64,000 bases of DNA from Naegleria gruberi (lineage: Eukaryota): the NCBI GenBank assembly GCA_000004985.1, contig GG738871.1. One strand, 5' to 3'. Made by a program: the position numbers and the translations under genes. Of this stretch, positions 1,701 through 49,716 are shown in pieces (position 1 is the stretch's first letter; every line of letters starts with the position of its first letter). The notes under the pieces were generated by a model that did no database searches, was not told the origin of the DNA, and was given only the letters and a program-made list of their open reading frames with translations.

Positions 1701-4107
1701 AACTCCAAAATGTGATGGTATCTTAGCTTCCAATACTTCGACTTGTAATGGACAAGGTTCCTGTATCAATGCTGATGTTTGTATTTGTAATGATTACAAT
1801 CTTTGGGAAGGTAAATTCTGCCAAGTACCAATGTGTTACGGTAAACCACAAGGTGGATCTTCCACATGTAATAATGGAAATGGTACTTGTACATCTCCAA
1901 ATCACTGTTCCTGTAACTCTGGATATGTAGGCCCAGAATGTGAATATCCAGTTTGTTTCAATGTACCTAGCAATGACTCTTCAGTGTGTAACAATCGAAA
2001 CGGTACATGTATTTCACCTGATAAGTGTGCTTGTGAAAGTGGGTGGACTGGCGATAGTTGTCAAACACCAATCTGTTTCTCAATTTTGGGTAACTCTTCA
2101 GCTGTTTGTAGTCAAAGAGGTAGTTGTGTAGCTCCAAATTTTTGTGTTTGTAAGGATCATTATTATGGAGACGCATGTCAAAGAACTACTTGTTATGGTA
2201 TTGCTGATGATTCTAGTTCAACATGTTTTGGTCACGGTTCTTGTAGTGATTACAATACTTGTAATTGTTCATCAGGTTATGGTCCAGACAATTATTGTGA
2301 GCATCCAATATGTTATGGTTATTTAGCAAATGATACTAGAGTTTGTAACAATTCACGTGGTGTCTGTTTGAGTCCTGACGAATGTAGACCTTTGGACCCT
2401 GTATGTTTCGAAAAGGCAAAGAACGACAGTAATGTTTGCAGTGGTCATGGTAAATGTGTTGATTGGGATTATTGTGTTTGTAACACTTCAGATTATTATG
2501 GAGATCAATGTCAATATTGGAAATGTTTTACAAAGAATTACAACGCCTCAAATGTTTGTAATAACGGAAACGGTACCTGCTCATCTGTTAATAATTGTGT
2601 TTGCAACAGTGGATGGTATGGAAATGAATGTACAGTTCCAATGTGTAATGGAATTCTTGGTAATTCATCCCTCGTTTGTAACAATGGAAATGGTACCTGC
2701 TCCAAACCAGGTGCATGTCAATGTAATACTGGATATACAGGATCTGATTGTTCCATTCCAATTTGTTATGACAAATTAGCAAGTGACACAAGTAATGTTT
2801 GTTCAGGAAAGGGTTCTTGTGTTGCTAAGGATACTTGCTCTTGTCAAAACAAGTATACAGGTTATGAATGTCAATATGCCACATGTTATGGAGTTTCATC
2901 CAATTCTACAAGTGTCTGTAGTGGTAATGGTACATGTAACGGAGTTGATTCTTGTAATTGTTTATATGGTTATGGAGATTCTCAATGTAATGTTTTCAAA
3001 TGTTCCAATATTTTGGCTACTAGTAATAGCGTGTGTAGTGGAAGAGGTAAATGTTATGGAATTGATAAGTGTCAATGTGATACTGGTTACTATGGTCCTA
3101 ATTGTCAATATACCACTTGTAATGGTATTGCTGCTAACGACACTTCTGTATGTAATAGCAATGGTACCTGTACTGCTTATGAAACTTGTTCTTGCTCTGC
3201 TGATTGGTATGGCAAAAATTGTGACATTACTAAGTGTTACAATATCTTCTCAAATGATACAAGTGTTTGCAGTAGTAAGGGTAAATGTATCCTCAAGGAC
3301 AAGTGTGTCTGTACAGACATTAATTATGGTGGTTCTCAATGTGCCGATCCATACTGTTTTGGTTATTTGGCCGGAACTGTTGGAGTTTGTAGTGGAAATG
3401 GTCAATGTTTGGGAGTTAACTCTTGTAATTGTAATACTGGTTTCCTTGCCTCAAAGTGTCAATTCAAAACAATTAGTGGTATCTCTCTCACGTTCAATGC
3501 CTCTGCTGATTATGCCAATGAAACTCTCACCACCAAGGCAACTTTGTCAATTACTGACTCTTCATTCAGTACCTATTATGCTTCTACTAGCTTGAATGCT
3601 ACATTCTCATTTGTTTTCAATGGAGTTACATCAACATTCGACAAGATTCTCCCAGCCGGATCCAACAATGTTGAATTCATTCTTCCATTCTTCTACACTC
3701 AAAAAGGAACTGTTACCAGCTCTGTAACTCTCAAATTCACTGAAAGTACCACAACCATTACTGCAGGTCAAGCAACTGGTTCATCTTTAACCATTCAACA
3801 AAGAGTAATACCAACACCAACACCTACACCTATCAAATCATCACCAAAACCACAAGTTTCTCCAGCCAAATCCACCAACACTGTCAATCCAAAGGCCTCC
3901 ACTTCAACAACCACTAAGAGTGATTCCAATGTTGGAGGTGCCATTGCAGCTGGAGTCATTGTTCCATTAGTTGTAATTGGTGGAGGTGGTATCACTGCTG
4001 CCATCATTGCTGTTGTTGTCATTATGAAGAAGAAGGCCGCCACAGCAGCTGCCAGAGAACTTACCTATGCCACTCACTACGATGTTGAATTGGCTGAAGG
4101 TTACTGA
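1..4107 (+). CDS. EGF-like repeat type I membrane glycoprotein, family member C. 5-prime partial; enters the window in frame 3, shifts to frame 1 near 466-472, TGA stop at 4105-4107.
   Basis: About 35 tandem ~32-aa Cys-rich modules (CxxxGxCxxxDxCxCNSTYWGGxxCxxPKC, tenascin/EGF-like). They are followed by a ~170-aa Cys-free domain, a Thr/Pro-rich stalk, a hydrophobic helix GGAIAAGVIVPLVVIGGGGITAAIIAVVVI, and the tail KKKAATAAARELTYATHYDVELAEGY. The ORF 39..494 and the ORF 289..4107 are the same gene joined by a 1-nt insertion relative to sister repeat copies (compare 100-120 with 466-480). Confidence 0.75.
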
Positions 4108-4290
4108 TCGGATCTTTAGATTCCTTAATTCTGAAATAAAAAAATATTCTAACATTTCAAAAATATTGAATATTTGATAAACTGTGAACCTAAGAAATCT
4201 CAAATATGGCAATTAATTAAATTTCACCTTTTTAGTTTACTAATATTAAGACAATAAACGAAAACATTTAAAATAAATAATTGAATAAAA

Positions 4291-5856
4291 ATGCCAGAAG
4301 CTGCTGTCCTTTATCAATACCTCAAAAAGCATTCATCACTCTCCGTGTTGGTGGCCGTAGCATCACTCTCCTATTTGACCATTAGTGAAGTTTTAACCCG
4401 ATACTTTAACTTGTCTTCGATGACAAATTCATCTTCATGTCCAAATAATAGTATATTGGGTAATTCACTTTCCGAATATTTAAAACAAGATAAAGAACAT
4501 GTTCATATTGTAGGAGGAGGAATTTCTGGTTTATTGATGGGATTTATGTGTAAGGAATTGAAAATTCCCTTCACAATTTATGAAGCCAATGAAAATTCGT
4601 GTGGTGGCTTGTTGGGAAGTGAAAGAATTGCATTCAATCATGATGAAGAGTGGATGATTGCGGAGAAAGCAGCAAATGGTGTAATGTGGACTCCTCAAGT
4701 GGAATTGTTGTGTGAAAGGATTGGATTGATGGAAAGAGTTTTGTCAACCAAGAAGGAGGCGAAAGCAAGGTTTTTTGTTAGGAATGGAAAGTTGACTCAA
4801 TTTCCTATCAGTTATTTGTCAGTGTTTAATTTGTTGACTTGGAGAATGTGGAAATTGCCAGTGAATAGCTCATTCCAAAGTTTGGATGATTATTTTGGAT
4901 TTTATTTTGGTGAGGAAATTAAGAATCAATTTTTGGAACCTGCATTTGCTGGAATTTTTGGAACGACTCTGAATAATTTATCAGTTTTTGGCACAACTGA
5001 AATATTTCCAAAATTATTGAGTCAATCTTTGAGTTTTCCAATTTCGTTGGTGAAAAACGTAATTTCTGAAGTGTGGAATGGAATATTTGGAAGAAAACAA
5101 ATGAAATCTTCAAATAGGAGAGGTACGCACAGTTTCCAATGTGGTGTTCAAGATTTGATTGACCATTTAGTTCGCCACTTGGGTACAAACAATATCAAGT
5201 TTGGATGTGAAATTAAGGATTTATCTCATTTCCCAAGTGGTCAGAGAGTAATTTTAACAACGCCTGCCTATCAGACATTGAATATTCTTCAAAGTAATCT
5301 CTCTACCACTGAAAATGGTAGAGAATTGATTGAATTATTATCTAAAATTAGATATACTCCAATAGGTACATGTACTGTGATTGTGGAAAGAAGCAAGTGT
5401 CCAAAATTAGAGAAAGGGTTTGGCTGTCTCATTCCTAGAAATGAAGGAATGCACATTTTGGGAGTCCTTTTCAATTCATCTATTTTTGAGAATAGAGTTT
5501 CACATGATGAGAGATTTGCCAGTCTTACTTGTATCATGCAAGATAATGAAAAAAGTGGAAAACTCTCTGATGAAGAGTTATTGGAAAATATTGTTTCTAA
5601 AGAGTTGAGTTTATTATTCATGAACTCAAAGGAGGAAAACATTTCCATTGTAAAGAGCTCAATGAAGAGGTGGAAGTATGGAATTCCAGTTTATGACCAT
5701 CATCTTTACAAGTCTTGGAGCTCAATTCATTCCATCATGAAACAAGATTTACCTAATGTTAATTTATTTGGAAACTATACGGGACAGATTTCTATTCGTG
5801 GTATGATTGGACAAGCTGTTGAGCTTTTGACTAGTTTGGAAAATAGAAAGCATTAG
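4291..5856 (+). CDS. FAD-dependent protoporphyrinogen oxidase (HemY/PPOX)-like oxidoreductase with an N-terminal ~75-aa hydrophobic extension.
   Basis: Rossmann dinucleotide motif HVHIVGGGISGL is present. EPAFAGIFGTTLNNLSV resembles the PPOX GIYAGD region, and the C-terminal NLFGNYTGQISIRGMIGQA resembles the PPOX C-terminus. Single 521-aa ORF, TAG stop. Confidence 0.6.
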   Translation: MPEAAVLYQYLKKHSSLSVLVAVASLSYLTISEVLTRYFNLSSMTNSSSCPNNSILGNSLSEYLKQDKEHVHIVGGGISGLLMGFMCKELKIPFTIYEANENSCGGLLGSERIAFNHDEEWMIAEKAANGVMWTPQVELLCERIGLMERVLSTKKEAKARFFVRNGKLTQFPISYLSVFNLLTWRMWKLPVNSSFQSLDDYFGFYFGEEIKNQFLEPAFAGIFGTTLNNLSVFGTTEIFPKLLSQSLSFPISLVKNVISEVWNGIFGRKQMKSSNRRGTHSFQCGVQDLIDHLVRHLGTNNIKFGCEIKDLSHFPSGQRVILTTPAYQTLNILQSNLSTTENGRELIELLSKIRYTPIGTCTVIVERSKCPKLEKGFGCLIPRNEGMHILGVLFNSSIFENRVSHDERFASLTCIMQDNEKSGKLSDEELLENIVSKELSLLFMNSKEENISIVKSSMKRWKYGIPVYDHHLYKSWSSIHSIMKQDLPNVNLFGNYTGQISIRGMIGQAVELLTSLENRKH

Positions 5857-23357: not shown

Positions 23358-25070
23358 TTATTTTTCAACTAATGGTATTAAGAAATGGTTTGGTATTTTA
23401 CAATCGAAATAGGTTTCAGTCATTCTGATTTTTCTGAGTTTTTCAAACTTTTCTCGTTTAGGAAAAAAGCAAAATCCGTTCTGTTTAGCAGCAATTTCGC
23501 TTATTGTTTCATCTTTACGATGCAATGGAGCATGATATAATAAAAATCCATTCTTTTTAACCAATTCCATTACAATATTTCGATTTTTTAAAATTAAAAA
23601 ATTCATTTCTTCTCTTCCAATTTTCACATTTGGATTACGGACTTTCCATAGCCTTTCGTCATTGGTCAACCTATCTGAAGCTCCAAAAAAAGACCCTTTA
23701 TATTTGACTGCTGCCTCAACAACCTCAATATCGTTCTTTAGTTCGCTTGCCTCAATAAGAACACTTTTTAAAATTGAATCATTTTTCAATAATCGAATAA
23801 TGAATTGCTTGTCTCTCTTCAGAGTTGGATCTAAGAGTCTCATAAAATTCTGACAATTATTGTTATTTTCCAAAAGGGATTCAATAAATTCTTTGTCATG
23901 TTGTAACTCATTAGAGGCAAATAGGAAAGCCTTACACTCTTTCTTTACAGCATGTGTTACGATAGATTTGTCATTAATCAACACATCAGATGCAGCTTCC
24001 AAAGCTGAAGGAAAATTTGATATGGCTTCCCATACAATTTCATAATCATTTCTGTAAATATAGGGACAATAACAAAGCACGCCCCCTGATTTTCTCACAG
24101 TTTGCAAAACCAAATCTCTGTCAATACTATCCTCTTTCATCTTTGGAAAAATATACTCTATTCCATTGACGGCCAATTGTAACATCTCTCTAACAAATAG
24201 ATCATCATTCTTTAACTCTTCAGATGCATACATCATTGCACTTCCATGGATTAATATTGATCTTTTTACAATTTCTCTATGATTTCGGAATTCAGGTTTG
24301 ATAAATTCAATAATATTTGCAAATAAAGAACATTCCAAAATAAAGTCAACATCTTGCTTCAGATCATCGGTTGCATATTTAAATTGATATCGATTTTTTT
24401 TCACACAATTCAAAACCAATTCTCTATTGGATTTTAGCTCATCAGGGAATGATTCTAGACATGAGAAATGTTTCAAAATTTCAATGTCATTATGAAATTC
24501 TTTGGGTAAAAGGTGTTTTAGATCGGTCGAATTCATTCTTGCTATCATCTCTTTATGCGTGAAAAACAATCTATCACTTGCCAATTCATCTAAATAGGGT
24601 AGTAATGTCTCTCCGATTTTTACTTGGTAAGGCTCAATATTAGAAAGGACGAATTCTCTATTATTTCTCAATTCTTTTGACGCAAATTGAAACATGTTTG
24701 GAAAAATCATACAACAATCTTTCACAATTTGTGGATTGTTTTTAACATGAAAAGGTGAATCTTCACATAGCTGAAAATAATATTCCAATCTGAGGTTATA
24801 TTCTAAATACCAATAAAAAAACTTTTGTGCTATTGGATTTTTCTTGCCATTAGAAATTACAAACTCAAAAACTTCTTTATCATCAGTAAATTCGAGAGGC
24901 AAAAATTTGAATCTGTCTGGGTTCTCAAAATGTAAACGTCTGTTTTCGAGATAAAGAAGAAATCCTTTTTGTTGAGTTTGAAATTTTCGGATTAAAAGTT
25001 TGACTTGATGAGAAATGCAATGATCAAAATCTATCAGATAGAGAGTGGTGTGATGTGTGCTTCCAGACAT
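23358..25070 (-). CDS. DUF4116-repeat protein.
   Basis: About 12 degenerate ~35-aa repeats of the form ELKNNREFVLSNI / DELKSNRELVLNCVKKNRYQFKYATDDLKQDVDFIL / ELKNDIEVVEAAVKYKG. Single 570-aa ORF. Confidence 0.6.
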   Translation of the reverse strand: MSGSTHHTTLYLIDFDHCISHQVKLLIRKFQTQQKGFLLYLENRRLHFENPDRFKFLPLEFTDDKEVFEFVISNGKKNPIAQKFFYWYLEYNLRLEYYFQLCEDSPFHVKNNPQIVKDCCMIFPNMFQFASKELRNNREFVLSNIEPYQVKIGETLLPYLDELASDRLFFTHKEMIARMNSTDLKHLLPKEFHNDIEILKHFSCLESFPDELKSNRELVLNCVKKNRYQFKYATDDLKQDVDFILECSLFANIIEFIKPEFRNHREIVKRSILIHGSAMMYASEELKNDDLFVREMLQLAVNGIEYIFPKMKEDSIDRDLVLQTVRKSGGVLCYCPYIYRNDYEIVWEAISNFPSALEAASDVLINDKSIVTHAVKKECKAFLFASNELQHDKEFIESLLENNNNCQNFMRLLDPTLKRDKQFIIRLLKNDSILKSVLIEASELKNDIEVVEAAVKYKGSFFGASDRLTNDERLWKVRNPNVKIGREEMNFLILKNRNIVMELVKKNGFLLYHAPLHRKDETISEIAAKQNGFCFFPKREKFEKLRKIRMTETYFDCKIPNHFLIPLVEK

Positions 25071-27638: not shown

Positions 27639-30600
27639 ATGGTTACTGGAGGCAATCTTTCAGTATCTTGCTTTAAACAAGATGTAAAATCAGTTAGAGG
27701 CCTCATTGTCCTTCTCTTGTTGATTCTCTGTTTGACAACAATTGAGAAATGTTGTGGATATTACTACACAATGAATACTGTTGGTACCTTCACTTCTGGA
27801 ACCACCTTGTATCAAATGGACAAGTCCAAATTCTTCGCTAACAGATTCTACGTAGCAACAAGTGGAGGTCTTCAGTATTTCACTGTATCAAGTGGTGTGG
27901 CAAATCCAAGTAATTCTTATGTGTATAGTGGTGGGTTTCAAACTACCAGTATGGCAAATGTTGTTGTCAGAAGTACATCATCAAGTAAAGATGATGTTTT
28001 TTCTGGTACCATTAACACCTCCACTTGGAGGTATGGTTCAATAGCCAGTTCAACCACTACTGGTAATTCACTCACCAGTTGTGGCGTTATTGTTGCTGGT
28101 GTAAAACTCGATGCAAGCTCTACAACTTTTTCTGTGATTGGCAATGGTGTTGTGGGTACATTAACAATGACAACAGGTGGTAGTGCATCTTGTTCTGCAG
28201 TTACCTCATTTACAGGAGTTTCTGGCACAAGTACCACGCCATCTACTGATGGCACAGGTAGCGCAGCTACTGTTTACTCTAGTGGTACTCATGACATTAC
28301 CAAAAATTCAACATCTGGTGTAAGTATGAGAAAATTCAATTAATTAGATCTAACAACTGGCAGGTTTATTATTTTACTGAGGATTCAAAGATTAGAAAGG
28401 TTGTTTCAACTACTATCACAACTCTGGTAGGAGGAACTACTGGTACAGTGACAGATGGTACTCTCTCCTCTGCTACAGTTAAAAATCCAAGTTTCATGTC
28501 CATCTTGGGTGCAGGTGTAAGTTTTATTGCATTGTTATGATATATTAAACTGTTAACAGCTTGTATTTTCGGATACTGGTAGTAATAGAATTAGAGTTTT
28601 GGATACAGCCAATGAAGAAGTTGTTACTATTGCTGGTGGTGGCTCAACTACCCCATCAGGTACTGCTTCACTATCTGGTGCAGCAACAGGTTTTTCTTTA
28701 ACTAGCCCAAGAGGCATTTATGTGGACACTGATGACAGTATTTATTTTGTTGAAGGAATTTATGTTAGAAAGCTTGTCTATTCTTGTGAAGCAAATGAAA
28801 TTTATCAAGCAGGCTCATTCCCACCATGTGCTTGTAATACTACTGCTGGTTATGTGAGATCTGGAACTTCTTGCGTACCTACCTGTTCCAATTGTAATGT
28901 CAATCAAACATGTACTGGTCCAGAAACTTGTTCTTGTAAGAGTGGATATTCAGGAACAGATTGTTCTGCTTTTACCTGTTTTGGTGTAGCTCAAGATTCT
29001 ACATCTGTTTGTAATTCTAAAGGATATTGTGTTGCACCTGACACGTGTATATGTAGTGATACCTCCACTTTCTTTGGGTCAAATTGTAATGTGACTTATT
29101 GTAATTCTATTCCATCAACGAGTGGTAGTGTTTGTTCAGGACATGGAAGTTGTACTGATTATAATACTTGTACTTGTAGTGATACCAATTCATGGACAGG
29201 ATCTGATTGTGGAACACCTGTATGTGCAGTTGTGAGTGGAGGTGTTTGTTCTGGAAGAGGTAGTTGTACAGCTCCAAATATTTGCACTTGTAATGAACCA
29301 TCAAAATATGGTGGATCTTCATGTGAAATTCCAAAATGTAATGGAACACTTCAAGGCAATTCTGGTGTTTGCAATGGAAGAGGTTCTTGTATTGATGTTG
29401 ATACTTGTCAATGCACTGTTCCAACCTCTTGGGGTGGTTCATTCTGTGAAAAACCATACTGCTCTGGAATTTTACAAGGTGCAGCTGGTGTTTGTTCAAA
29501 TAGAGGAGTTTGTTCATCTCCTGATTCTTGTGTTTGTAATGAACAAACAAAGTATGGTGGTTCAAATTGTCAACTTGTCAAATGTGGAGGTTATTTGGAA
29601 ACAGACTCTGCTGTTTGTAACAAGAATGGTTCATGTATTGCTGTTGATACTTGTTCCTGTAATTCAAATTATGGTGGTTCAGATTGTCAATATCCAAAGT
29701 GTAATGGCATTGCTTCGAATAGTGGTAGTGTTTGTAATTCACAAGGATCATGTGTTGCACCAAATGTTTGTGTCTGTAATTCAAATTATGCTGGACCATT
29801 ATGCGAATATCCAAAATGTAATGGCGTAGCTTCCAATGATGCAAGTGTTTGCAATTCGAATGGAACTTGTACTGGTGTTAATACTTGTGTTTGTAATGTT
29901 AACTATACAGGATCATATTGTCAATATCCAAAATGTAATGGAATATCTTCCAATGATGCAAGTGTTTGTAATAACAAAGGTGGTAATTGTATTGCACCAA
30001 ATGTTTGTTCATGTAATTCAAGTTATACTGGTCAATTCTGTCAATTCCCAAAGTGTAATGGTATTGGATCCAATGATGCAAGTGTTTGTAATGCAAATGG
30101 TACTTGTATTGGAATTAATGTTTGTTCATGCAATTCAAATTATGCTGGTCCATATTGTCAATATCCAAAATGTAATGGTATTGCTTCAAATAGTGGTAGT
30201 GTTTGTAATTCACAAGGATCATGTGTTGCACCAAATGTTTGCGCCTGTAATTCAAATTATGCTGGTACATATTGTGATAAACCAAGATGTGGAACCTTTT
30301 ATAAGGGAGATGCTTCTGTTTGTAATTCGAGAGGTAGTTGTGATGCTGTTGATAGTTGTACTTGTAGTGATACATCTTCTTGGGGTGGTAATTTGTGTCA
30401 ATATCCAAAATGTAATGGTGTTCTTTCAAATATTGGAACTGTTTGTAGCAGTAGAGGTACTTGTCAATCTCCAAACAATTGTTCATGCACTGATCCAAAT
30501 TCATATGGTGGTTCATATTGTGAAAAAGCAAAATGTTATGGAATTCTTCAAGGAGATTCAAATGTTTGCAGTGGACATGGTACTTGTAGTGGTGTGAATC

Positions 30601-32542
30601 AATGTTCATGCAGTGCTGGATATGGAGGTGAACAATGTCAATATCCAAAATGTTTCAATATTTTGAGTAATGAAACAACAGTTTGTAACAATAGAAACGG
30701 TACTTGTACTGCACCTGACACTTGTTCATGTAATAATGGATGGACTGGAAGCAAGTGTGATGTTGCCATTTGTTTTTCAATTCTCTCCAATTCAACAAGT
30801 GTTTGTTCAAACAAGAGAGGTAATTGTGTCACACCAGATAATTGTGTTTGTAAAAGTCAATATTCAGGTTCTCAATGTGAATATACCACTTGTTCTGGAA
30901 TAAGATCAGATCAACATCGACAGTATGTTATGGAAATGGTCAATGTATTGATTATTTACTTGTAATTGTACAACTGGTTATGGACCATCCAATGTATGTC
31001 AATATCCAATTTGTGGTGGTTATTTAGCAAATGATACCAGAGTTTGTAACAATTCAAGAGGTGTTTGTTCCAAACCAAATACATGTAGACCATTAGATCC
31101 CGTATGTTATGGTAAAGCTCAGAATAATTCAATGGTTTGCAGTGGAAATGGAGCATGTGTTGATTGGGATTATTGTGAATGTAAAACTGGTTTCAATGGA
31201 AATGAATGTCAAAATTGGGAATGTTATGGAAAGAATTATACCAACTCAAATGTTTGTAACAATAGAAATGGTACCTGTTCATCTGTGAATAATTGTGTTT
31301 GCAACAGTGGATGGTATGGAAATGAATGTACAGTTCCAATGTGTAATGGAATTCTTGCTAATTCATCTCTCATTTGTAACAATAGAAATGGTACCTGCTC
31401 CAAACCAGGTGCATGTCAATGTAATACTGGATACACAGGACCTGATTGCTCCATTCCAATTTGTTATGGAAAATTAGGCAAGTGACACAAGTAATGTTTG
31501 TTCAGGAAGAGCAGAATGTATTGGTTATAACAAGTGTAATTGTGACACTTCCAAGTATAGTGGTTCACAATGTGAATATTTCAAATGTTTTGGTATTCCA
31601 TCAAATGATGCTTCAGTTTGCAGCAGAAACGGAACATGCTCTGGAGTGAATCAATGTTCTTGTAATTATGGTTATGGTTCTTCAAATTGTGACATTTTCA
31701 CATGTTCAAACGTTCTTGCCACCGATTCGAGTGTTTGCACTGGAAAGGGTGTATGTTATGGAATTGACAAGTGTTCATGTGATTCAGGATATTTTGGATC
31801 AAATTGTGAAATTATCTCCTGTTATGGAATTCCAAAGTCCAACAATACTGTATGTGGAGGAGTTGGTGAATGTTCACAACTTGATACATGTGTTTGTGGA
31901 AGCAATTATAGAGGATCAATGTGTGAATTATCTTACACCTCTTCATCTCAAGCAACACTTCAATTCAATAATACGAATGAATATGTGAATGAACAATTCA
32001 CAAGCATGGCCACTTTGACAATTAATAATCCTCTCTTCGGTCAATATTATTTGAGAAGAAGTGTTCAAGTTGTTGTTTCATTTGAAATTAATTCACAATT
32101 CAGTTATTCTGAAACACTTTATATTGAAAATGGAGTTTCATCTGTTTCATTAATGGTGAAATCGTTGAGTCAAACTGGTACATTGAAAGCATCTGCTCAA
32201 TTAATTGATAATAGTACATTAATTTCCATTTCAGATAGCATTCAATCTTCAAATAGCATTACAATTCAAAATAGACCTATTGTTGTTCCATCCACAACGA
32301 CATCCACAATCAAACCAACAACCTCTGCACAAACAAGTAGAGCTGTTATCGATACAGGAAGTAATGGTGGAGCCATTGCAGCTGGTATCATTGTTCCAGT
32401 GGCAGTTATTGGAATTGGAGGTGGTGTCACTGCAGCCATTGTCACAGCAGTTGTTTTGTTAAAGAAGAAGGCTGCTGCAGCTGCTGCCAAAGAAATTACA
32501 CATGCTCAACACGTCAATGTTGAACTAGCTGAAGGTTTCTAA
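27639..32542 (+). pseudogene. NHL-propeller/EGF-repeat membrane protein paralog A. Exons 27639..28319, 28364..28516 and 28560..32542; three frameshifting indels near 30913, 30956 and 31480 relative to paralog B.
   Basis: Same architecture as B (44914..49716). 28860-32542 is ~98% identical to 46030-49716 at nucleotide level, but reading requires frames 0, 1 and 2 (ORFs 28599..30965, 31132..31485, 31646..32542). Could be a recent pseudogene or assembly indels. Confidence 0.55.
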
Positions 32543-32791: not shown

Positions 32792-34560
32792 ATGCAACAA
32801 CAACAACCTCGCTCAATGATGACATTCATCTTCCATTTCATAATGACAATATGTGTCGTCGTCGTATCATTGATGTTGAATCAAAGTGGTGGTGTAAACG
32901 GAGCAGTGTATCAAGTGAGTGATGCGGTTACTTTGTGGAATACCTTTTCTAAACTACAGGCTGGTATGTACAAGACTCATGACCTATTACATATTATTTA
33001 ACATGGAATGTGCTTGATGATCGGTTATTATTATGGTTGGTGTTGTTTCACATATTGTGTGTGTGGCGCTTGTAATCTTTGTTACTTACATGATTTGCAT
33101 GCTTTTCATAATATCCATGATTGTGTATTTTAAATTTGACTGTGCTCCATATGTTTGGCCAACTTGACAATACTTTTGTGTGAAATTGTGTGTGTGAAAT
33201 GGATGGGTTGTTTGGTGTTTTGATGCTTTTGGTGTTGGTTTTTTTTGCAGGTGATGAAATGGTTATTAGACAAGGAACTTATTCTACATCAACTGGTGGA
33301 TCCTATTATAGACAATTTACATTGAAAGGAACTGAAAGTCAACCAATTAGAGTTTATGCTTTGAAAAACGAAACTGTGGAAATTAAGGGAGATGCAGCTG
33401 GTAGTCAAAATATTCTCAATTTTGATGTTGAATATTTTGTGATGGATAATATTGGGTTCTCACAAGGTAGTCGTGGATTGAGATTTTTAAATTCGAAACA
33501 TTCAGTTTATTCTAATTTGAGAGTTAAAAACACAGGAGATGTTGGTATTGCCATGAATGACGGAAATGCTATTTATCAAAACAATACTTTAAGATATAAT
33601 GAAGTTTCGTATACTGGAGGAACTGGTGAATGTTTCTATTTGGGTTGTAACAATGCTGATTGCAAATTCATTTTCAATTTATTGGAAAATAACTATTGCC
33701 ACCACACATCTACCACCTCCCAAGGAGATGGTATTGAAATCAAAGCTGGAAGTTATGGAAATCTTGTCAGAAACAATGTCATTCATGATGGAAAGTATCC
33801 AGGCATTACCTTGTACAGCACTTATGTGTCTGGTGGTGATGCAGCTGTTGGTATTGCTAATCCAAATATTATTGAAGGAAATATCATTTGGACAGTCGTT
33901 GATAATGGTATACAAGTGACAGGTAATGCAATTATTAGAAATAACATTATTTATAATGCAGGTGCTAGTGGAATTGCCATTCAAGTCAATCAAGGAACTG
34001 TCGAAAATGTCAAAGTATTGCACAATACAGTTGTCAAAGCAGGTGCTGCTTGTATTAGAGTGACAAATTCAGGACCAGGAATTGTCATTGCTAATAATGC
34101 TGCCTATTGTGAAGCTACCAATTCAATTTATATTGCTGCTGCATTGCCTGCTGATGGTGTCATTTCAAGAAATGTCATTCAGGGATCGACTAATGTTCAA
34201 GTTGCGAATGGAACTCTCAATATTGGTAAATTCACAACTGATTTCCAAAGTACTAGCGCCTTGCCATATAATGTTTTCCCAGTTACTTCCAGTAATGTGC
34301 TTGGAAAGGCAGATTCAAAGTATGCAACCACTTATGATTTCAATTTTAATACTAGAAATGGACCAACTTATGACTGTGGTGCTTATCAAGCTAATGGAGC
34401 TACTTCAAATCCTGGTTGGATTCCAAAAGCTGGATTCAAGACAACCACAGCTCCTACACCTAATACATCTACTAAGACTAATGGTGCTGCTGTTGGAAGC
34501 TTTGTGTCAACTCTTGCACTTGTTTTCGTTGCACTTGTGGTAATGTTTACTTTGAATTAA
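32792..34560 (+). CDS. Secreted right-handed parallel beta-helix (pectin-lyase-fold, PbH1-repeat) protein with C-terminal hydrophobic GPI-signal-like tail. Exons 32792..32963 and 33251..34560; intron GTATGT...TTTTTTGCAG.
   Basis: Signal peptide MMTFIFHFIMTICVVVVSLML. Beta-helix rungs NNVIHDG, GNIIWTVVDNGIQVTGNAIIRNNIIYNAGASGIAIQVNQGTVENVKVLHNTVVKAGAACIRV, IANNAAY. Thr/Pro stalk, then terminal VSTLALVFVALVVMFTLN. Confidence 0.6.
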
Positions 34561-34798: not shown

Positions 34799-36712
34799 CT
34801 AATGTTGCAGGTAATCATGATGAACACGACCAGCAGGCATGATCATGTCAACCTTAAAGTTAAAGGCACCAACAACTTGCTTGACAGGGAGATCACTAAT
34901 TGGAGCGTTAACGTGAGGAATGAGTGCAAGCTTAGCATCTCCCTTATAGGCACTAGTTACATTTAGGTTGGCATGTTCCATTCTAACCAATTGAACAATA
35001 GCTGGATCACCACGAACGTCAGGAATATGCTTTAAGAATAATTGAGGAGTGGACAAGTAGGAAACGACATCTTCGAAAGCCATTCTTTCATACTTGTAGG
35101 ACATTGTACCAGTTGCAACTCTGCAACCATTGCAATCCAATGTACCCTTCAAAGTATCTTGAGTTGGAGCGAATGTAATACCATCACAGAACTTTTGAGG
35201 TAAACCAAGACATTCTCTACCATATGTAATTGGAGATGAAGAATCCAAGAAACTCATAGTGTTAAAGTGGATAGAGTTACCTTCGTTATCAGTACATGGA
35301 ACAATCAAGTCAACCTTGTAATAACTACCAATACCAGTACCATGAGTATTGACGAATTGAAGAATTACAATATTGTCTTCATTTGGAGTGAGTTGATCTG
35401 GAATCTTTTCCAACAAAGATTCTCTATCTGTTACATATTTGATAACCATGTATTCTCTGTCTTGGAGCTTTGAAGCAGATGGCTTATAGGATGGACATGT
35501 TACTGGCATTGCCAATGACTCTTCTGTAATTTTCTTTTCGGTAAAGATTGATCTGTATTGACCTGGTTGGACAAACATTTGGTGGAATTTTTGAGAAACA
35601 GCCTTATTTTCTTCAGTTGGTTCGAGATAATCATGCAAAACATTACCGTATGGCAACAAGATATCAGCCATCATGTGTTTACCTTGAATAACCTTCTTGA
35701 CAGGCAAATCAGCAACTGGTGCATTAACATTTTCAACCAAGTGCAATCTAGCTGGACCTTCAAAGGCAAAATGCAACTTTTTAACTTGCAAGTTATATGA
35801 AACAATTTGGGCAATCTTTGGCTTGAAATCAACATCAGGAATAATCTTCAAATTAATATTGGTCTTTCCCATTGATTTCAAAACAGTATCATGATCAAGT
35901 TCAGTGTGTTTGTAAGCCATTGTACCTTGAGCAACAGTTTCTCCCTTATATTTCATAACACCAACAACTGTATCTTGAATACATTTCATGGATGGGTGAG
36001 CATGTTTTTTCTAATTATATGACACAATTAATATTTCCATTTTGCTTCCGAGATTTAAAACTTACAGGAAAACCCCAAATTTCACGACCTTAATATTTAC
36101 AAGTTATTGACACAAATTAGATAATTGTTGAAATACTACTTACCAGCAGCAATTGGTGGTTCAATATCCAAATACATTTGGAGAGTAAGATTAACTGATT
36201 CTCCATTATAAGTGCAAGGAATGACAATACCTGATTCGGAATACTAACAATTAATTCATCATATATATTAAATTCTCAAAATCATTAATATCACTTACAG
36301 ATCCGAAACCAGAAGAGTCTGGCATGTTAATCCTTTAAAGAAGTTAATATCATTTCTGTAATTAAAAACACATACCATTCATACAATACATGACTATTTT
36401 CATTAGGGACAAGTGGTTCTGGAACCAAAGCACGAAGAGCTTCGGCATCAGTTTCATACGTAACAATAAAGTATTCTCTGTTCTTGAAAAAGTATGGTCC
36501 TAATATCAATATTATTGTAACCGATGAAAATATATGAAATAACAATGATGAATGATAACAAAGATGACAAACTTACCTCTCGGATAAGAAGGAGACATAA
36601 TAGGAGTAGAAGGTAATCCCAAAATCATATCCTTGGTAAATTTACCCTTCTCTTTACCTGGTTTAATAATTGATTTGAATGCTCTAGCAAAAACTGAAGG
36701 TGAAACTCTCAT
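34799..36712 (-). CDS. Tandem double acetoacetate decarboxylase-like (ADC/MppR family) protein. Five exons: 36577..36712, 36376..36499, 36300..36333, 36144..36243, 34799..36010. The start may instead be the upstream ATG at 36772.
   Basis: Domain 1 ([96 protein letters not shown]...DLPVKKV...DYL) aligns along its length with Clostridium ADC ([36 protein letters not shown]...NEPAIAVGRE...DLPVKEI). Domain 2 ([39 protein letters not shown]...DLPVKQV...DYLQH) is a second complete copy. Confidence 0.7.
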
Positions 36713-41574: not shown

Positions 41575-42765
41575 TTATTGCTTGTAGGTATCAACTGGCT
41601 TCTTATAGGTATCGACTGGCTTCTTGTAAGTGTCAACCTTCTTTGGTGGCTTATAAGTATCGGTCTTCTTTGGTGGCTTGTAGGTATCAACCTTAGTACA
41701 AACTCTCTTCTTCTTAGCACAGACACTCTTATCAGCGTGCTTTCTACAGACTCTCTTACCTCCAACAAAGTTGTACTTGACACAGATCTTTTGACCTGGT
41801 GACTTCTTGACACAATGCTTCTTGAATGATCTCTTAATACATCTTGGCTTCAATGTCTTGTATTGAGTACAATATGGCTTGGCAACATAGTCACAACAGA
41901 ACTTATCTTCTTTGTAAGCCTTACAAACTCTAACCTTTTCTTTGAGATCACAGAATTTGCTTGGAGTCCACTTGGTACAGAACTTGGTCTTTTGCTTGGC
42001 AACGCAATACTTTCTTTGGACAACCTTAACACATTTCTTTTCATAACCAATCTTCTTGGCAAACTTGACGTTTTCATATTTGGTACAGGTCTTCTTCTTG
42101 GCATATTCAACACAAATGGTACGATGCTTCTTTTCCAAAACTTGCTTATAGTAATGATCGATCCAACCCTTGTAATGTTTCTTACTGACTGGAACCCATT
42201 TAGCAACAGTTCTTGAGAGTTTCTTATATTTGGCACAATATTGATGAACAGAGTATTTGGCACATCTCTTCTTATGGAAATACTTAATCTTTGGAACGTA
42301 GGTTTCAGCAGCACATCTTGATGACTTGTCATACTTGGTACAAATGAAATGATAAGCATATTCATCACAAGCATTATTCTTTCCGTGGTGTTTGCACAAT
42401 TCCTTCCATTCATATTTGGCACAAATCTTGTGCTTAGTAACCTTTGAACAGAATTGCTTATAACCGTGACCCAAACAAATCTTTTCAGCTTTGCTGTACT
42501 TGTCACACTTGTGAGTCTTCTTATATTCCAAACATTTACCCTTTCCAACAGTCTTCCAATCGCAGCACTCTTTCTTGGTACCAACCCATTCATAATCAAC
42601 ACATTTACCTTGGATAGTCTTGTAGTGAGTACACTTGTTGTAGCAATACTCTTGATGATCAGAATAGGTATCAACCTTCTTGGAAGGAGCAGGAGCTGGG
42701 TTTGCAAGAACCATACTTGCTGCCAATACACTCAAAACGATTGCAATGATTATACTTGTTTTCAT
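41575..42765 (-). CDS. Secreted, highly basic Lys/Cys/Tyr-rich repeat protein with C-terminal KPPKK(T/V)DTY / KKPVDTY repeats.
   Basis: Signal peptide MKTSIIIAIVLSVLAASMVLA. More than 20 Cys in recurring (K/H)xC(x)KY motifs (CDKY, CAKY, CTKY, CVEY, CTQY). Tail is VDTYKPPKKTDTYKPPKKVDTYKKPVDTYKKPVDTYKQ. Single 396-aa ORF. Confidence 0.6.
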   Translation of the reverse strand: MKTSIIIAIVLSVLAASMVLANPAPAPSKKVDTYSDHQEYCYNKCTHYKTIQGKCVDYEWVGTKKECCDWKTVGKGKCLEYKKTHKCDKYSKAEKICLGHGYKQFCSKVTKHKICAKYEWKELCKHHGKNNACDEYAYHFICTKYDKSSRCAAETYVPKIKYFHKKRCAKYSVHQYCAKYKKLSRTVAKWVPVSKKHYKGWIDHYYKQVLEKKHRTICVEYAKKKTCTKYENVKFAKKIGYEKKCVKVVQRKYCVAKQKTKFCTKWTPSKFCDLKEKVRVCKAYKEDKFCCDYVAKPYCTQYKTLKPRCIKRSFKKHCVKKSPGQKICVKYNFVGGKRVCRKHADKSVCAKKKRVCTKVDTYKPPKKTDTYKPPKKVDTYKKPVDTYKKPVDTYKQ

Positions 42766-44913: not shown

Positions 44914-47900
44914 ATGAAACTAGTGAGCTTTCCCTATCATTTGTTGATTGCTGCTTGTGTAGTGTTACTTCTTGGCAAAGTTAGTGCATGGAGATATTCT
45001 GTGAAAACTCTTGCTACAGGTCTAGGCAGTATTTCTCAAATTGTTGGCTCTCCAAAATATATTTATGTTACACTTGGCTCCAGTTCAAAGAAGATTTATG
45101 CCTACGATAGACAATTATTGGCCACTCAGTCTGTACAAACATTGCAACAAGTCCACGATATAACAGCATCATCAAACAATATTGGTTATATTGCTTATCA
45201 TGGCAATGATTCGAATGACGCTGAAGTGATATCAGTAGCTGGCAATAATTTTCCAAACAATGTGGGTTTGTACTGGTTTACATGCTCATCAACCTGTTCC
45301 ACTCCAACACCCTTCTCTTATAATATAAGGGTCTCAGGAATTAGATCCCTAGGAATTGAGAACTCAACTCCCAAACTTTACATAACAAGACAAACAGCAA
45401 TTTACACTGGCACTCCTTCAGCAAATGCTATTGTATCAACAACTGGAACAATCAATTTTAAAGCTTTCAATGATGTTGATTATATTGGCAATACAGTAAG
45501 TTTTAATTATTTTGCAAATAGGTAACATTGGTTTAGGTTTATTTTACTGACTCAGGTGGAAACCTAAAAATTGCAACAAGTTCAACACCATTAATCAGTG
45601 TAGGCACATTTAGTGATGGTGCCAGTGGTACTGCTCGTTTATCTTCAGGCACAACATTCATCTCTGCACAGTTCAATAAGGTATGTAGTTATGAACAATA
45701 TGTTGTTGGAATAATTTTAAAAGATTTTTATCTCAGACACTGGAAACAGTAGAATTAGACTTTATGATATTGCTACAGGAATTACAACTACAATAGCTGG
45801 TGATCCTTCTAAATCAACAGCTGGAACAACAACTTTCAGTTTATCCGACGTACCAACTAATTACAAATTCACACCAACAGGTATTTGGATTGATAACTCT
45901 AATGGTATCATTTATTTTGCAGACACCAGTACCTTGAGAGCTTTAGTTCCAACTTGTAACAGTACTACAGAAGATCAATCTTCAACTTACCCTTTCTGTA
46001 CTTGTAAAACTGGATATTCATTGGTAAATGGAGATTGTGTTGCATCCACTAGTTGTTCTCCAGGATTGTGTAATGACAATCAAACATGTACTGGCCCAGA
46101 AACTTGTTCTTGTAAGAGTGGATATTATGGAACAAATTGTGATAATTATGACTGTTATGGAACTCAGAAGGATAATCTTTCTGTATGTAATGGAAAAGGT
46201 GTTTGCGTTTCTCCAAACACGTGTATTTGCACCAATGCAAACTATGATGGCTTTAATTGTAATATTACAACTTGTAATTCTATTCCATCAACGAGTGGTA
46301 GTGTTTGTTCTGGACATGGAAGTTGTACTGATTATAATACTTGTGCTTGTAGTGATACCAATTCATGGACAGGATCTGATTGTGGAACACCTGTATGTGC
46401 AGCTGTGAGTGGAGGTGTTTGTTCTGGAAGAGGTAGTTGTACAGCTCCAAATATTTGTACTTGTAATGAACCATCAAAATATGGTGGATCTTCATGTGAA
46501 ATTCCAAAATGTAATGGAACACTTCAAGGCAATTCTGGTGTTTGCAATGGAAGAGGTTCTTGTATTGATGTTGATACTTGTCAATGCACTGTTCCAACCT
46601 CTTGGGGTGGTTCATTCTGTGAAAAACCATACTGCTCTGGAATTTTACAAGGTGCAGCTGGTGTTTGTTCAAATAGAGGTGTTTGTTCATCTCCTGATTC
46701 TTGTGTTTGTAATGAACAAACAAAGTATGGTGGTTCAAATTGTCAACTTGTTAAATGTGGAGGTTATTTAGAAACAGACTCTGCTGTTTGTAACAAGAAT
46801 GGTTCATGTATTGCTGTTGATACTTGTTCCTGTAATTCAAATTATGATGGCCAATTTTGTCAATATCCAAAATGTAATGGCATTGCTTCAAATAGTGGTA
46901 GTGTTTGTAATTCACAAGGATCATGTGTTGCACCAAATGTCTGCTCTTGTTTCACAAATTATGCTGGACCATTATGCGAATATCCAAAATGTAATGGCGT
47001 AGCTTCCAATGATGCAAGTGTTTGTAGCTCGAATGGTACCTGTACTGGTGTTAATACTTGTGTTTGTAATGTTAACTATACAGGATCATATTGTCAATAT
47101 CCAAAATGTAATGGAATATCTTCAAACGATGCAAGTGTCTGTAATAACAAAGGTGGTAATTGTATTGCACCAAATGTTTGTTCATGTAATTCAAGTTATA
47201 CTGGTCAATTCTGTCAATTCCCAAAGTGTAATGGTATTGGATCCAATGATGCAAGTGTTTGTAGTGCAAATGGTACTTGTATTGGAATTAATATTTGTTC
47301 ATGCAATTCAAATTATGCTGGTCCATATTGTCAGTATCCAAAATGTAATGGCATTGCTTCAAATAGTGGTAGTGTTTGTAATTCACAAGGATCATGTGTT
47401 GCACCAAATGTTTGCGCCTGTAATTCAAATTATGGTGGTACATATTGTGATAAACCAAGATGTGGAACCTTTTACAAGGGAGATGCTTCTGTTTGTAATT
47501 CGAGAGGTAGTTGTGATGCTGTTGATAGTTGTACTTGTAGTGATACTTCTTCTTGGGGTGGCAATTTGTGTCAATATCCAAAATGTAATGGTGTTCTTTC
47601 AAATATTGGAACTGTTTGTAGCAGTAGAGGTACTTGTCAATCTCCAAACAATTGTTCATGCACTGATCCAAATTCATATGGTGGTTCATATTGTGAAAAA
47701 GCAAAATGTTATGGAATTCTTCAAGGAGATTCAAATGTTTGTAGTGGACATGGTACTTGTAGTGGTGTGAATCAATGTTCATGTAGTGCTGGATATGGAG
47801 GTGAACAATGTCAATATCCAAAATGTTTCAATATTTTGAGTAATGAAACAACAGTTTGTAACAATAGAAACGGTACTTGTACTGCTCCTGACACTTGTTC

Positions 47901-49716
47901 ATGTAAAAATGGATGGACTGGAAGCAAGTGTGATGTTGCCATTTGTTATTCAATTCTCTCCAATTCAACAAGTGTTTGTTCAAACAAGAGAGGTAATTGT
48001 GTCACACCAGATAATTGTGTTTGTAAAAGTCAATATTCAGGTTCTCAATGTGAATATACCACTTGTTCTGGAATAAGATCAGATCAAACATCGACAGTAT
48101 GTTATGGAAATGGTCAATGTATTGATTATAATACTTGTAATTGTACAACTGGTTATGGACCATCCAATGTATGTCAATATCCAATTTGTGGTGGTTATTT
48201 AGCAAATGATGCCAGAGTTTGTAACAATTCAAGAGGTGTTTGTTCCAAACCAAATACATGTAGACCATTAGATCCCGTATGTTATGGTAAAGCTCAGAAT
48301 AATTCAATGGTTTGCAGTGGAAATGGAGCATGCGTTGATTGGGATTATTGTGAATGTAAAACTGGTTTCAATGGAAATGAATGTCAAAATTGGGAATGTT
48401 ATGGAAAGAATTATACCAACTCAAATGTCTGTAACAATGGAAATGGTACCTGTTCATCTGTGAATAATTGTGTTTGTAACAGTGGATGGTATGGAAACGA
48501 ATGTACAGTTCCAATGTGTAATGGAATTCTTGGCAATTCATCTCTCGTTTGTAACAATAGAAATGGTACCTGCTCCAAACCAGGTGCATGTCAATGTAAT
48601 ACTGGATACACAGGACCTGATTGCTCCATTCCAATTTGTTATGGAAAATTAGGCACTGATACAAGTAATGTTTGTTCAGGAAGAGCAGAATGTATTGGTT
48701 ATAACAAGTGTAATTGTGACACTTCCAAGTATAGTGGTTCACAATGTGAATATTTCAAATGTTTTGGTATTCCATCAAATGATGCTTCAGTTTGCAGCAG
48801 AAACGGAACATGCTCTGGAGTGAATCAATGTTCTTGTAATTATGGTTATGGTTCTTCAAATTGTGACACTTTCACATGTTCAAATGTTCTTGCCACCAAT
48901 TCAAGTGTTTGCAGTGGAAAGGGTGTATGTTATGGAATTGACAAGTGTTCATGTGATTCAGGATATTTCAGTACCAATTGCGAGCTATTTTCTTGTTATG
49001 GAATTCCAAAGTCCAACAATACTGTATGTGGAGGAGTTGGTGAATGTTCACAACTTGATACATGTGTTTGTGGAAGCAATTATAGAGGATCAATGTGTGA
49101 ATTATCTTACACCTCTTCATCTCAAGCAACACTTCAATTCAATAATACGAATGAATATGTGAATGAACAATTCACAAGCATGGCCACTTTGACAATTAAT
49201 AATCCTCTCTTCGGTCAATATTATTTGAGAAGAAGTGTTCAAGTTGTTGTTTCATTCCAAATTAATTCACAATTCAGTTATTCTGAAACACTTTATATTG
49301 AAAATGGAGTTTCATCTGTTTCATTAATGGTGAAATCATTGAGTCAAACTGGTACATTGAAAGCATCTGCTCAATTAATTGATAATAGTACATTGATTTC
49401 CATTTCAGATAGTATTCAATCTTCAAATAGCATTACAATTCAAAATAGACCTATTGTTGTTCCATCCACAAAGACATCCACAACCAAACCAACAACCTCT
49501 GCACAAACAAGTAGAGCTGTTATCGATACAGGAAGTAATGGTGGAGCCATTGCAGCTGGTATCATTGTTCCAGTGGCAGTTATTGGAATTGGAGGTGGTG
49601 TCACTGCAGCCATTGTCACAGCAGTTGTTTTATTAAAGAAGAAGGCTGCTGCAGCTGCTGCCAAAGAAATTGCACATGCCCAACACGTCAATGTTGAACT
49701 AGCTGAAGGTTTCTAA
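44914..49716 (+). CDS. NHL-propeller/EGF-repeat type I membrane glycoprotein, paralog B (intact). Exons 44914..45495, 45546..45680 and 45724..49716.
   Basis: Signal peptide MKLVSFPYHLLIAACVVLLLGKVSA. NHL-like blades (VYFTDSGGNLKIA; IFISDTGNSRIRLYDIATGITTTIAG; GIWIDNSNGIIYFADTSTL). About 35 EGF/tenascin-like Cys modules, a Cys-free ~170-aa domain, Ser/Thr stalk, helix GGAIAAGIIVPVAVIGIGGGVTAAIVTAVVLL, and tail KKKAAAAAAKEIAHAQHVNVELAEGF. Introns GTAAGT...TTTAG and GTATGT...AAAAG. Confidence 0.8.

Follow-up and report, generated by a model that had tools for sequence, protein, structure and literature searches.

The window analysed here, 64,000 nucleotides of Naegleria gruberi DNA from contig GG738871.1 (assembly GCA_000004985.1), carries on its minus strand a gene that encodes two full-length acetoacetate decarboxylase (ADC) domains in a single polypeptide. 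We read this gene, with a probability of roughly 60%, as encoding a mitochondrial ADC fused to a conserved, non-catalytic, built-in partner copy. The gene starts with an ATG at 36712 and ends with a TAG at 34801-34799, and its corrected product of 542 aa is 100% identical to an annotated N. gruberi "predicted protein" at NCBI (P0001). The protein itself is thus already annotated and its domain architecture can be seen in public databases; what appears to be new is the recognition of the second domain as a conserved pseudoenzyme and of matching active/dead gene pairs in proteobacteria. The features on which the argument is built are the following:

36712-34799, minus strand: whole ADC gene from ATG to stop, 6 exons and 5 introns, 542 codons plus TAG
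36641..36712, minus strand: N-terminal extension, codons 1-24, lying beyond bacterial ADC; putative mitochondrial presequence
35618..36640 (interrupted by introns), minus strand: domain 1, residues 25-270, a catalytically competent ADC domain judging by its residues
36008..36010, minus strand: codon of Lys140, which corresponds to Schiff-base Lys115 in clostridial ADC
35531..35617, minus strand: linker between the domains, residues 271-299, a helix being predicted at 272-285
34802..35530, minus strand: domain 2, residues 300-542, ADC fold without the catalytic residues
35315..35317, minus strand: codon of Lys371, at the position of Glu76 in domain 2
35195..35197, minus strand: codon of Gln411, which takes the place of the Schiff-base lysine in domain 2

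The Pfam model PF06314 (cut-off 29.8 bits) matches the protein twice, at residues 36-268 and at about 308-541, and when the halves were run separately both matches were strong (domain 1, E 1.4e-71, 241 bits; domain 2, E 1.5e-46, 159 bits). Aligned over 235 aa, the two halves share 36% identity (E 5e-53). A first-pass annotation, prepared from the DNA letters alone, had already placed the gene on this strand between these positions and had described two complete domains with shared motifs at both ends; all of this was confirmed, the motifs reading SPSYPRG and CPSYKPS near the start of the two domains and DLPVKKV...HDYL and DLPVKQV...HDYL near their ends. Its assignment to an ADC/MppR family was right in its first half only. 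NF002614, the NCBIfam model for true ADC (cut-off 150 bits), gives 320.6 bits for domain 1 and 204.6 bits for domain 2, and since both domains pass it the protein belongs to the genuine ADC subfamily and lies outside the MppR branch. The members of that branch (MppR, Sbi00515 and Swit_4259) have the same double-barrel fold as the Naegleria ADC (Foldseek E 1e-13 to 1e-17), but they share only 12-20% identity with it, and neither Naegleria domain belongs among them. For the MppR/Sbi00515 type the identity is 16-20% and the TM scores are 0.72-0.78, as against 44-47% and 0.89-0.97 for true ADCs. By sequence the E value is about 2e-4 for the MppR/Sbi00515 branch and 5e-66 for domain 1 against the Chromobacterium ADC 3bgt, an alignment that has no gaps across the active site.

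Among known systems, those closest to this protein include the bacterial ADCs (EC 4.1.1.4; Clostridium acetobutylicum 3BH2, Chromobacterium violaceum 3BGT and Legionella 3C8W). Domain 1 shares their fold with a root mean square deviation (rmsd) of 0.9-1.0 A, is 44-47% identical to them and has all of R29, E61, E76, K115 and K116 in common with them. The bacterial proteins have a single domain, measure about 245 aa and assemble into homododecamers, whereas the Naegleria protein has two domains, the second of them without the catalytic lysine, and has in addition a presequence and introns.

Besides the Schiff-base lysine, we take Arg29, Glu61, Glu76 and Lys116 to be the active-site residues of ADC, their roles reportedly being those described by Ho et al. 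2009. Lys115 is the catalytic lysine of the clostridial enzyme and has a pKa of about 6 (PMC11155677). In domain 1 of N. gruberi the residues R53, E86, E101, K140 and K141 correspond to R29, E61, E76, K115 and K116 of the C. acetobutylicum enzyme, and these positions align without gaps to both 3bh2 and 3bgt. The equivalent of Lys140 is kept in 30/30 eukaryotic first domains and in all bacterial active copies; E61 and E76 are likewise kept in all 30 first domains, R29 being unaligned in two of them and K116 varying in four. The full pattern, REEKK, is found in 33 of 35 bacterial single-domain ADCs. By its residues, domain 1 is most likely catalytically like bacterial ADC.

Domain 2 presents a different picture, with R324, Q357, K371, Q411 and K412 at the positions of R29, E61, E76, K115 and K116. 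A check of the catalytic positions in both domains, which had been proposed with the first-pass annotation, thus yields a complete set in domain 1 and the replacement of K115, E61 and E76 by Q411, Q357 and K371 in domain 2, and the absence of the Schiff-base lysine bears out its suggestion that the second domain is regulatory or catalytically distinct. The Schiff-base lysine is present in 0/39 homologous eukaryotic second domains. Within the main eukaryotic clade of second domains, Glu76 is replaced by Lys in 88% and Glu61 by Gln in 64%, and the Lys115 site is occupied by Gln in 52%; the equivalents of Arg29 and Lys116 are kept in about 88% or more of second domains. Active ADCs have 54 positions with a conservation of 90% or more; of these, 25 are kept in domain 2, 6 have switched to a new conserved residue, most clearly Glu76 to Lys, and 23 are relaxed, and the domain evolves about twice as fast as domain 1. 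Since Arg29, Lys116 and 25 of the 54 conserved positions are retained, domain 2 is clearly maintained by selection, though not for catalysis. Domain 2 is retained in all two-domain orthologues with its catalytic residues lost, and on these comparisons it is, as far as the canonical site goes, a pseudoenzyme domain that has been conserved.

Two points weigh against this interpretation. Domain 2 keeps Arg29 and Lys116 and has gained the conserved Lys371, so that ligand binding or a new chemistry is conceivable; and a literature search on two-domain ADCs gave only a table entry (PMC4198247) and no biochemical, transcript or localisation data. The first point leads to an alternative, which we regard as improbable, that domain 2 has been neofunctionalised, Lys371 together with the retained Arg324 and Lys412 catalysing another reaction or binding a keto-acid allosterically. 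It would account for the contrast between the conserved lysine at the Glu76 site and the variable former Schiff-base site, and for the retention of the arginine and the second lysine, and the superfamily does include non-decarboxylases, for example the aldolase-dehydratases 4zbt and 6eej and MppR itself (4jm3). To our knowledge, however, all solved enzymes of the superfamily use a lysine at the canonical position (MppR and Sbi00515 papers). A lysine at the Glu76 site is moreover not general in dead copies, the second genes of the bacterial pairs described below (B2) having Ala there and a second eukaryotic group, here called group X, having Glu, and the relaxation of 23 of the 54 conserved positions also speaks against a new catalytic role.

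We return to the pseudoenzyme interpretation, which the predicted structure allows to be taken further. The AlphaFold model, built with 30 two-domain homologues, has a pLDDT (predicted local distance difference test) of 93.5 and a pTM (predicted template modelling score) of 0.89 for the whole chain, a value that predicts a fixed arrangement of both domains. Searched with Foldseek, domain 1 superposes on 3bgt with an rmsd of 0.9 A and a TM score of 0.94, and on 3bgt, 3bh2 and 3c8w together with 0.9-1.0 A and TM scores of 0.89-0.97; the order of secondary-structure elements in domain 2 mirrors that of domain 1, with pLDDT above 90. No two-domain ADC was found among the Foldseek matches in the PDB. 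The constituent dimers of ADC-family dodecamers and tetramers are very similar to one another (PMC2954204), and the bacterial ADCs 3bh2 and 3c8w are dodecamers; from the model we infer that the packing of domain 1 against domain 2 mimics the ADC dimer.

The N-terminal extension had been put at about 35 aa, and relative to bacterial ADC it is shorter, about 24 aa. It contains 7 Lys/Arg and a single acidic residue (Glu) and is disordered in the model, residues 1-14 having a pLDDT below 50. Most full-length homologues also have extensions, of 18-60 aa, which are poorly conserved, basic, rich in Ser/Thr and poor in acidic residues. This composition suggests that the N. gruberi protein is probably mitochondrial. 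The phylogenomic screen of Wang & Wu lists COG4689 (ADC) as a mitochondrion-derived nuclear gene and gives its localisation as unknown (PMC4198247, Table 2).

In the mechanism that we propose, the presequence would direct the protein to the mitochondrion, where Lys140 of domain 1 would form a Schiff base with acetoacetate, followed by loss of CO2 and release of acetone. Domain 2, as its residues predict, could not run this chemistry at the canonical site. It would instead replace the second subunit of the conserved ADC dimer and so serve stability, assembly or regulation, and the fused chains may assemble as hexamers.

The gene model was re-derived from GT...AG boundaries together with bacterial ADC sequence, and its exons and introns are:

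36577..36712, minus strand: exon 1, residues 1-45 plus one base of codon 46
36500..36576, minus strand: intron 1, 77 nt, GTAAGT...AG
36376..36499, minus strand: exon 2
36333..36375, minus strand: intron 2, 43 nt, GT-AG; its end had earlier been placed one base off
36299..36332, minus strand: exon 3, 34 nt
36244..36298, minus strand: intron 3, 55 nt, GT-AG; its start had earlier been placed one base off
36144..36243, minus strand: exon 4
36089..36143, minus strand: intron 4, 55 nt, GT-AG
36066..36088, minus strand: exon 5, a micro-exon of 23 nt; it completes the codon of Gly132 and then encodes REIWGFP (R133-P139)
36011..36065, minus strand: intron 5, 55 nt, GT-AG, phase 0, directly before the codon of the catalytic Lys
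34799..36010, minus strand: exon 6, 1,212 nt, residues 140-542 and the stop

This differs from the first-pass annotation, in which four introns had been proposed. With those four the coding sequence comes to 1,606 nt, a length not divisible by 3, and stop codons occur throughout it. The first junction (36576/36500) was correct, two others (36375/36334 and 36299/36244) were each one base off, and the supposed single intron of 133 nt (36143/36011) is in fact two introns of 55 nt around the micro-exon at 36088-36066. The residues encoded by this micro-exon, R133-P139, are invariant in ADCs, and skipping it produces a frameshift. A single open frame in exon 6 takes in the latter half of domain 1, the linker and the whole of domain 2; the fusion is therefore independent of every splice call, since this exon alone reaches from the catalytic Lys140 to the last residue of domain 2. 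The orthologue of N. fowleri (L081:3001-4880) has 3 introns as compared with 5 in N. gruberi, and the sole position common to both species is that of intron 1, after the Pro-Arg of SYPRG. This indicates a rapid turnover of introns between the two species, and with one of five positions shared the introns are young, lineage-level features. In composition the gene is like its neighbours (GC content 37.5% and GC content at third codon positions, GC3, 30.4%, compared with 35.8 +/- 1.7% and 28.5 +/- 6.9%), and its description as an intron-bearing eukaryotic gene is borne out by an ordinary nuclear context, the genes on either side being ordinary Naegleria genes.

The fusion is not specific to Naegleria, to judge from the homologues recovered. 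Two-domain orthologues of 505-612 aa are found in N. fowleri (543 aa, 78% identity), Tetrahymena thermophila, Arcella intermedia, Monosiga brevicollis, Salpingoeca rosetta, S. infusionum, Choanoeca flexa and Paulinella chromatophora, so that ciliates, choanoflagellates, Amoebozoa and Rhizaria are all represented, with many more in metagenomic eukaryotes. Transcriptome-derived open reading frames (ORFs) from Choanoeca, Salpingoeca infusionum and Paulinella cover both domains. Proteins consisting of a stand-alone domain 2 (P0111, P0117, P0125 and P0198) were also considered, and these look like fragments.

Trees were built as neighbour-joining (NJ) bootstraps with Kimura, gamma and Scoredist distances. 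The main clade of first domains was recovered with 70-88% bootstrap support and the main clade of second domains with 73-91%, and the groupings inside the two clades mirror each other. As first domains cluster with first domains and second with second, the fusion must predate the split of these lineages, or else have spread between eukaryotes as an already fused gene.

These results bear directly on the scenario of the first-pass annotation, in which a bacterial ADC entered the Naegleria lineage, gained introns and was then internally duplicated. The ADC family is overwhelmingly bacterial, and a search of 1.84 billion representative sequences gave 1,906 ADC matches, only some 15-20 clusters of which include both domains; the young introns, and the 52-63% identity between domain 1 and its closest bacterial sequences, the ADCs of alpha- and beta-proteobacteria, also fit such a transfer, and the bacterial ancestry of the family is upheld by the same identities, with which the phylogenomic listing of ADC is in agreement. 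Yet the same two-domain protein occurs in the four other groups named above, the composition of the gene is fully host-like, and ADC is listed as mitochondrion-derived and not as transferred later (PMC4198247). The separate clustering of first and second domains, both within broad eukaryotic clades, places the fusion before Naegleria and is the very outcome that had been named in advance as contradicting this scenario. The proposed order, a transfer and then a duplication, is also in doubt, an active/dead ADC pair being present in the closest bacteria. We consider acquisition and duplication within the Naegleria lineage very improbable.

The second eukaryotic group, group X (P0025, P0026, P0031 and P0036; L082:1492-3045), stands apart from these clades. 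It is found on marine metagenome contigs that also carry eukaryotic PITP and PAE genes and on which all genes lie on one strand and are without introns. Its first and second domains together form a clade of their own with 94-98% NJ bootstrap support, separate from the main domain clades, and its second domain has Met at the lysine position and keeps Glu at the Glu76 site. From the tree, group X is probably an independent tandem duplication.

We examined the loci of the bacterial relatives, and adjacent ADC genes on the same strand, which we call B1 and B2, were found in 16 of the 36 loci most similar to domain 1 and in 0/44 of the remaining loci. The paired loci are L002, L003, L004, L007, L008, L010, L012, L014, L016, L019, L020, L021, L024, L026, L027 and L036, the pair occupying about 3001-4510 of each locus (1271-2762 in L027), and the stop of B1 and the start of B2 overlap (e.g. 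ATGA) or lie within about 30 bp of each other. In all 16 pairs the catalytic set is complete in the upstream gene, B1, and the downstream gene, B2, is without the Schiff-base lysine, its pattern being R-Q-A-M-K in 15 loci and R-E-Q-Q-K in L012. These pairs (e.g. Blastomonas L016, Acidovorax L020 and Sandarakinorhabdus L021) therefore have an active copy followed by a dead copy, which is also how the two domains of the eukaryotic protein are arranged. No relative closer to domain 1 than B1 is known (60-63% identity), and B2 resembles domain 2 in lacking Lys115, Glu61 and Glu76 (in the 15 RQAMK loci) and in keeping Arg29 and Lys116. They differ from the Naegleria protein in being two separate genes and not one polypeptide, and in the replacements themselves, B2 having Ala at the Glu76 site and Met at the Lys115 site where Naegleria domain 2 has Lys and Gln. 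No description of such active/dead ADC pairs was found in our literature search.

The pair of L012 (3001-4517), from an Azospirillum-like metagenome-assembled genome, is a special case, as its B2 has the B1 of the same locus as nearest neighbour, with 70% identity between the two, and has replaced both Lys115 and Glu76 by Gln. This points to an independent and recent duplication followed by loss of Lys115, and with group X it makes it seem that dead second copies arose repeatedly.

The surroundings of the bacterial genes also bear on the substrate. A 3-hydroxybutyrate dehydrogenase gene (TIGR01963, above cut-off) adjoins ADC in L016, L033 and L053, with a patatin-like gene also nearby, and several bacterial proteins (P0054, P0057, P0059, P0077, P0081, P0083 and P0085) have ADC fused to a short-chain dehydrogenase (SDR; PF13561/PF00106) or to a patatin (PF01734/PF12536). 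The dehydrogenase neighbours and the ADC-SDR fusions place these relatives downstream of 3-hydroxybutyrate oxidation and so support acetoacetate as the probable substrate; on their domain content, the ADC-SDR and ADC-patatin fusions fit a link to 3-hydroxybutyrate or polyhydroxybutyrate catabolism.

The existence of these pairs raises the question of where domain 2 came from, and on this the NJ, profile and derived-state comparisons are equivocal between a fused operon and a duplication in eukaryotes. In the first case the duplication and the death of the second copy would have taken place in a proteobacterium as B1-B2, and the eukaryotic gene would be the fused pair, received from the mitochondrial ancestor or from a proteobacterial donor. 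The concentration of pairs among the ADCs most like domain 1 (16/36 against 0/44), the identical order of active and dead copies and the stop/start overlaps such as ATGA all favour this origin, as do two replacements common to B2 and domain 2 (Glu61 to Gln and Ser93 to Gly) and the listing of ADC as mitochondrion-derived (PMC4198247). In the NJ trees, too, the domain 2 clade most often has B2 as its sister (28-43%, as against 0-5% for domain 1 with domain 2), and the best Scoredist tree puts B2 outside the clade of B1 and domain 1. The support for domain 2 with B2 nevertheless drops to 5% when the 35 columns in which dead copies have lost conserved residues are removed, which means that this signal may be convergence or long-branch attraction. 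Only 3 of 27 B2-specific states are shared with domain 2, which is ancestral at the non-catalytic B2-specific sites; second domains score about 10 bits higher on a domain 1 profile than on a B2 profile; and no indel is common to B2 and domain 2. An operon fusion is a tentative possibility that we think rather doubtful.

Several of the same observations can be read in favour of a duplication in an early eukaryote, by which a single ADC was acquired, duplicated in tandem and fused, its second copy losing catalysis independently of the bacterial pairs. The preference of domain 2 for the domain 1 profile and its ancestral states at B2-specific sites are what such an origin predicts, and the repeated emergence of dead copies, shown by the close B1-B2 pair of L012 and by group X with both of its domains in one strongly supported clade, fits it as well. 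Monophyly of domain 1 and domain 2, by contrast, is recovered in only 0-5% of NJ bootstraps, although the long branch of domain 2 could account for this, and there are no derived states specific to domain 1 with which to test it. We give this origin a little less than an even chance. Long-branch attraction and convergent loss of the active site can explain the origin signal either way.

A bolder interpretation, which we hold to be speculative and on the whole unlikely, combines several of these elements. The eukaryotic two-domain ADC would be a fused proteobacterial active/dead heteromer, possibly borne by the mitochondrion, whose dead half acts as an obligate, prozyme-like scaffold or activator; live/dead dimers would have evolved at least four times, the conserved dimer needing only one active site. 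A parallel for such a role is the "prozyme" of trypanosomatid S-adenosylmethionine decarboxylase, a dead paralogue kept under selection and obligately associated with the active enzyme. The fold of the prozyme is unrelated to that of ADC, and in Naegleria the association is covalent, the fusion guaranteeing the physical association of domain 1 and domain 2, and the activator role is putative. No natural live/dead pairing of ADC subunits was described in the literature searched.

In the remainder of the window no second copy of ADC was found. An ORF of equal length at 41575-42765 on the minus strand was considered as a second ADC and rejected, as it encodes an unrelated Lys/Cys-rich protein of 396 aa with a signal-peptide-like N-terminus, extreme Lys/Cys/Tyr content and VDTYK(K)P repeats at the C-terminus; it matches no Pfam family, and its GC3 of 0.43 is the highest in the window. 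The neighbouring genes, which encode a beta-helix protein, EGF-repeat proteins and a DUF4116 protein, give no metabolic context. The first of these (33190-34560, plus strand), which is convergent with the ADC gene and has its stop 238 bp from that of ADC, encodes a right-handed beta-helix protein (PF13229) of 456 aa; this protein has a Thr/Ser-rich stretch and a hydrophobic C-terminal tail and may be surface-anchored. Three ORFs on the plus strand (28599-30965, 31646-32542 and 45934-49716) encode large proteins with EGF repeats of the teneurin/Jagged type, the GC3 of the first and the last (0.125-0.151) being unusually low beside the 0.22-0.35 of most ORFs in the neighbourhood, and a 570-aa protein encoded at 23358-25070 on the minus strand contains at least 8 DUF4116 repeats (E 3.7e-67).

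ADC is the textbook example of a Schiff-base enzyme with a perturbed lysine pKa and is used in engineered acetone pathways. The live/dead design takes two forms, a fused protein in protists and a pair of operon genes in proteobacteria. Should the live half be stabilised or regulated by the dead one, this would bear on the function of the ADC oligomer and on enzyme engineering, and live/dead ADCs would add a recurrent case of pseudoenzyme evolution. There is also a problem of annotation, because NF002614, which NCBI uses for naming, puts dead copies far above its cut-off (B2 scores 288-302 bits, for example L016:3771-4508 and L002:3738-4478) and automated annotation will consequently call these acetoacetate decarboxylase. 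For the organisms themselves, the fused protein suggests that ketone-body or lipid catabolism in Naegleria, ciliates and choanoflagellates may include a mitochondrial branch that forms acetone.

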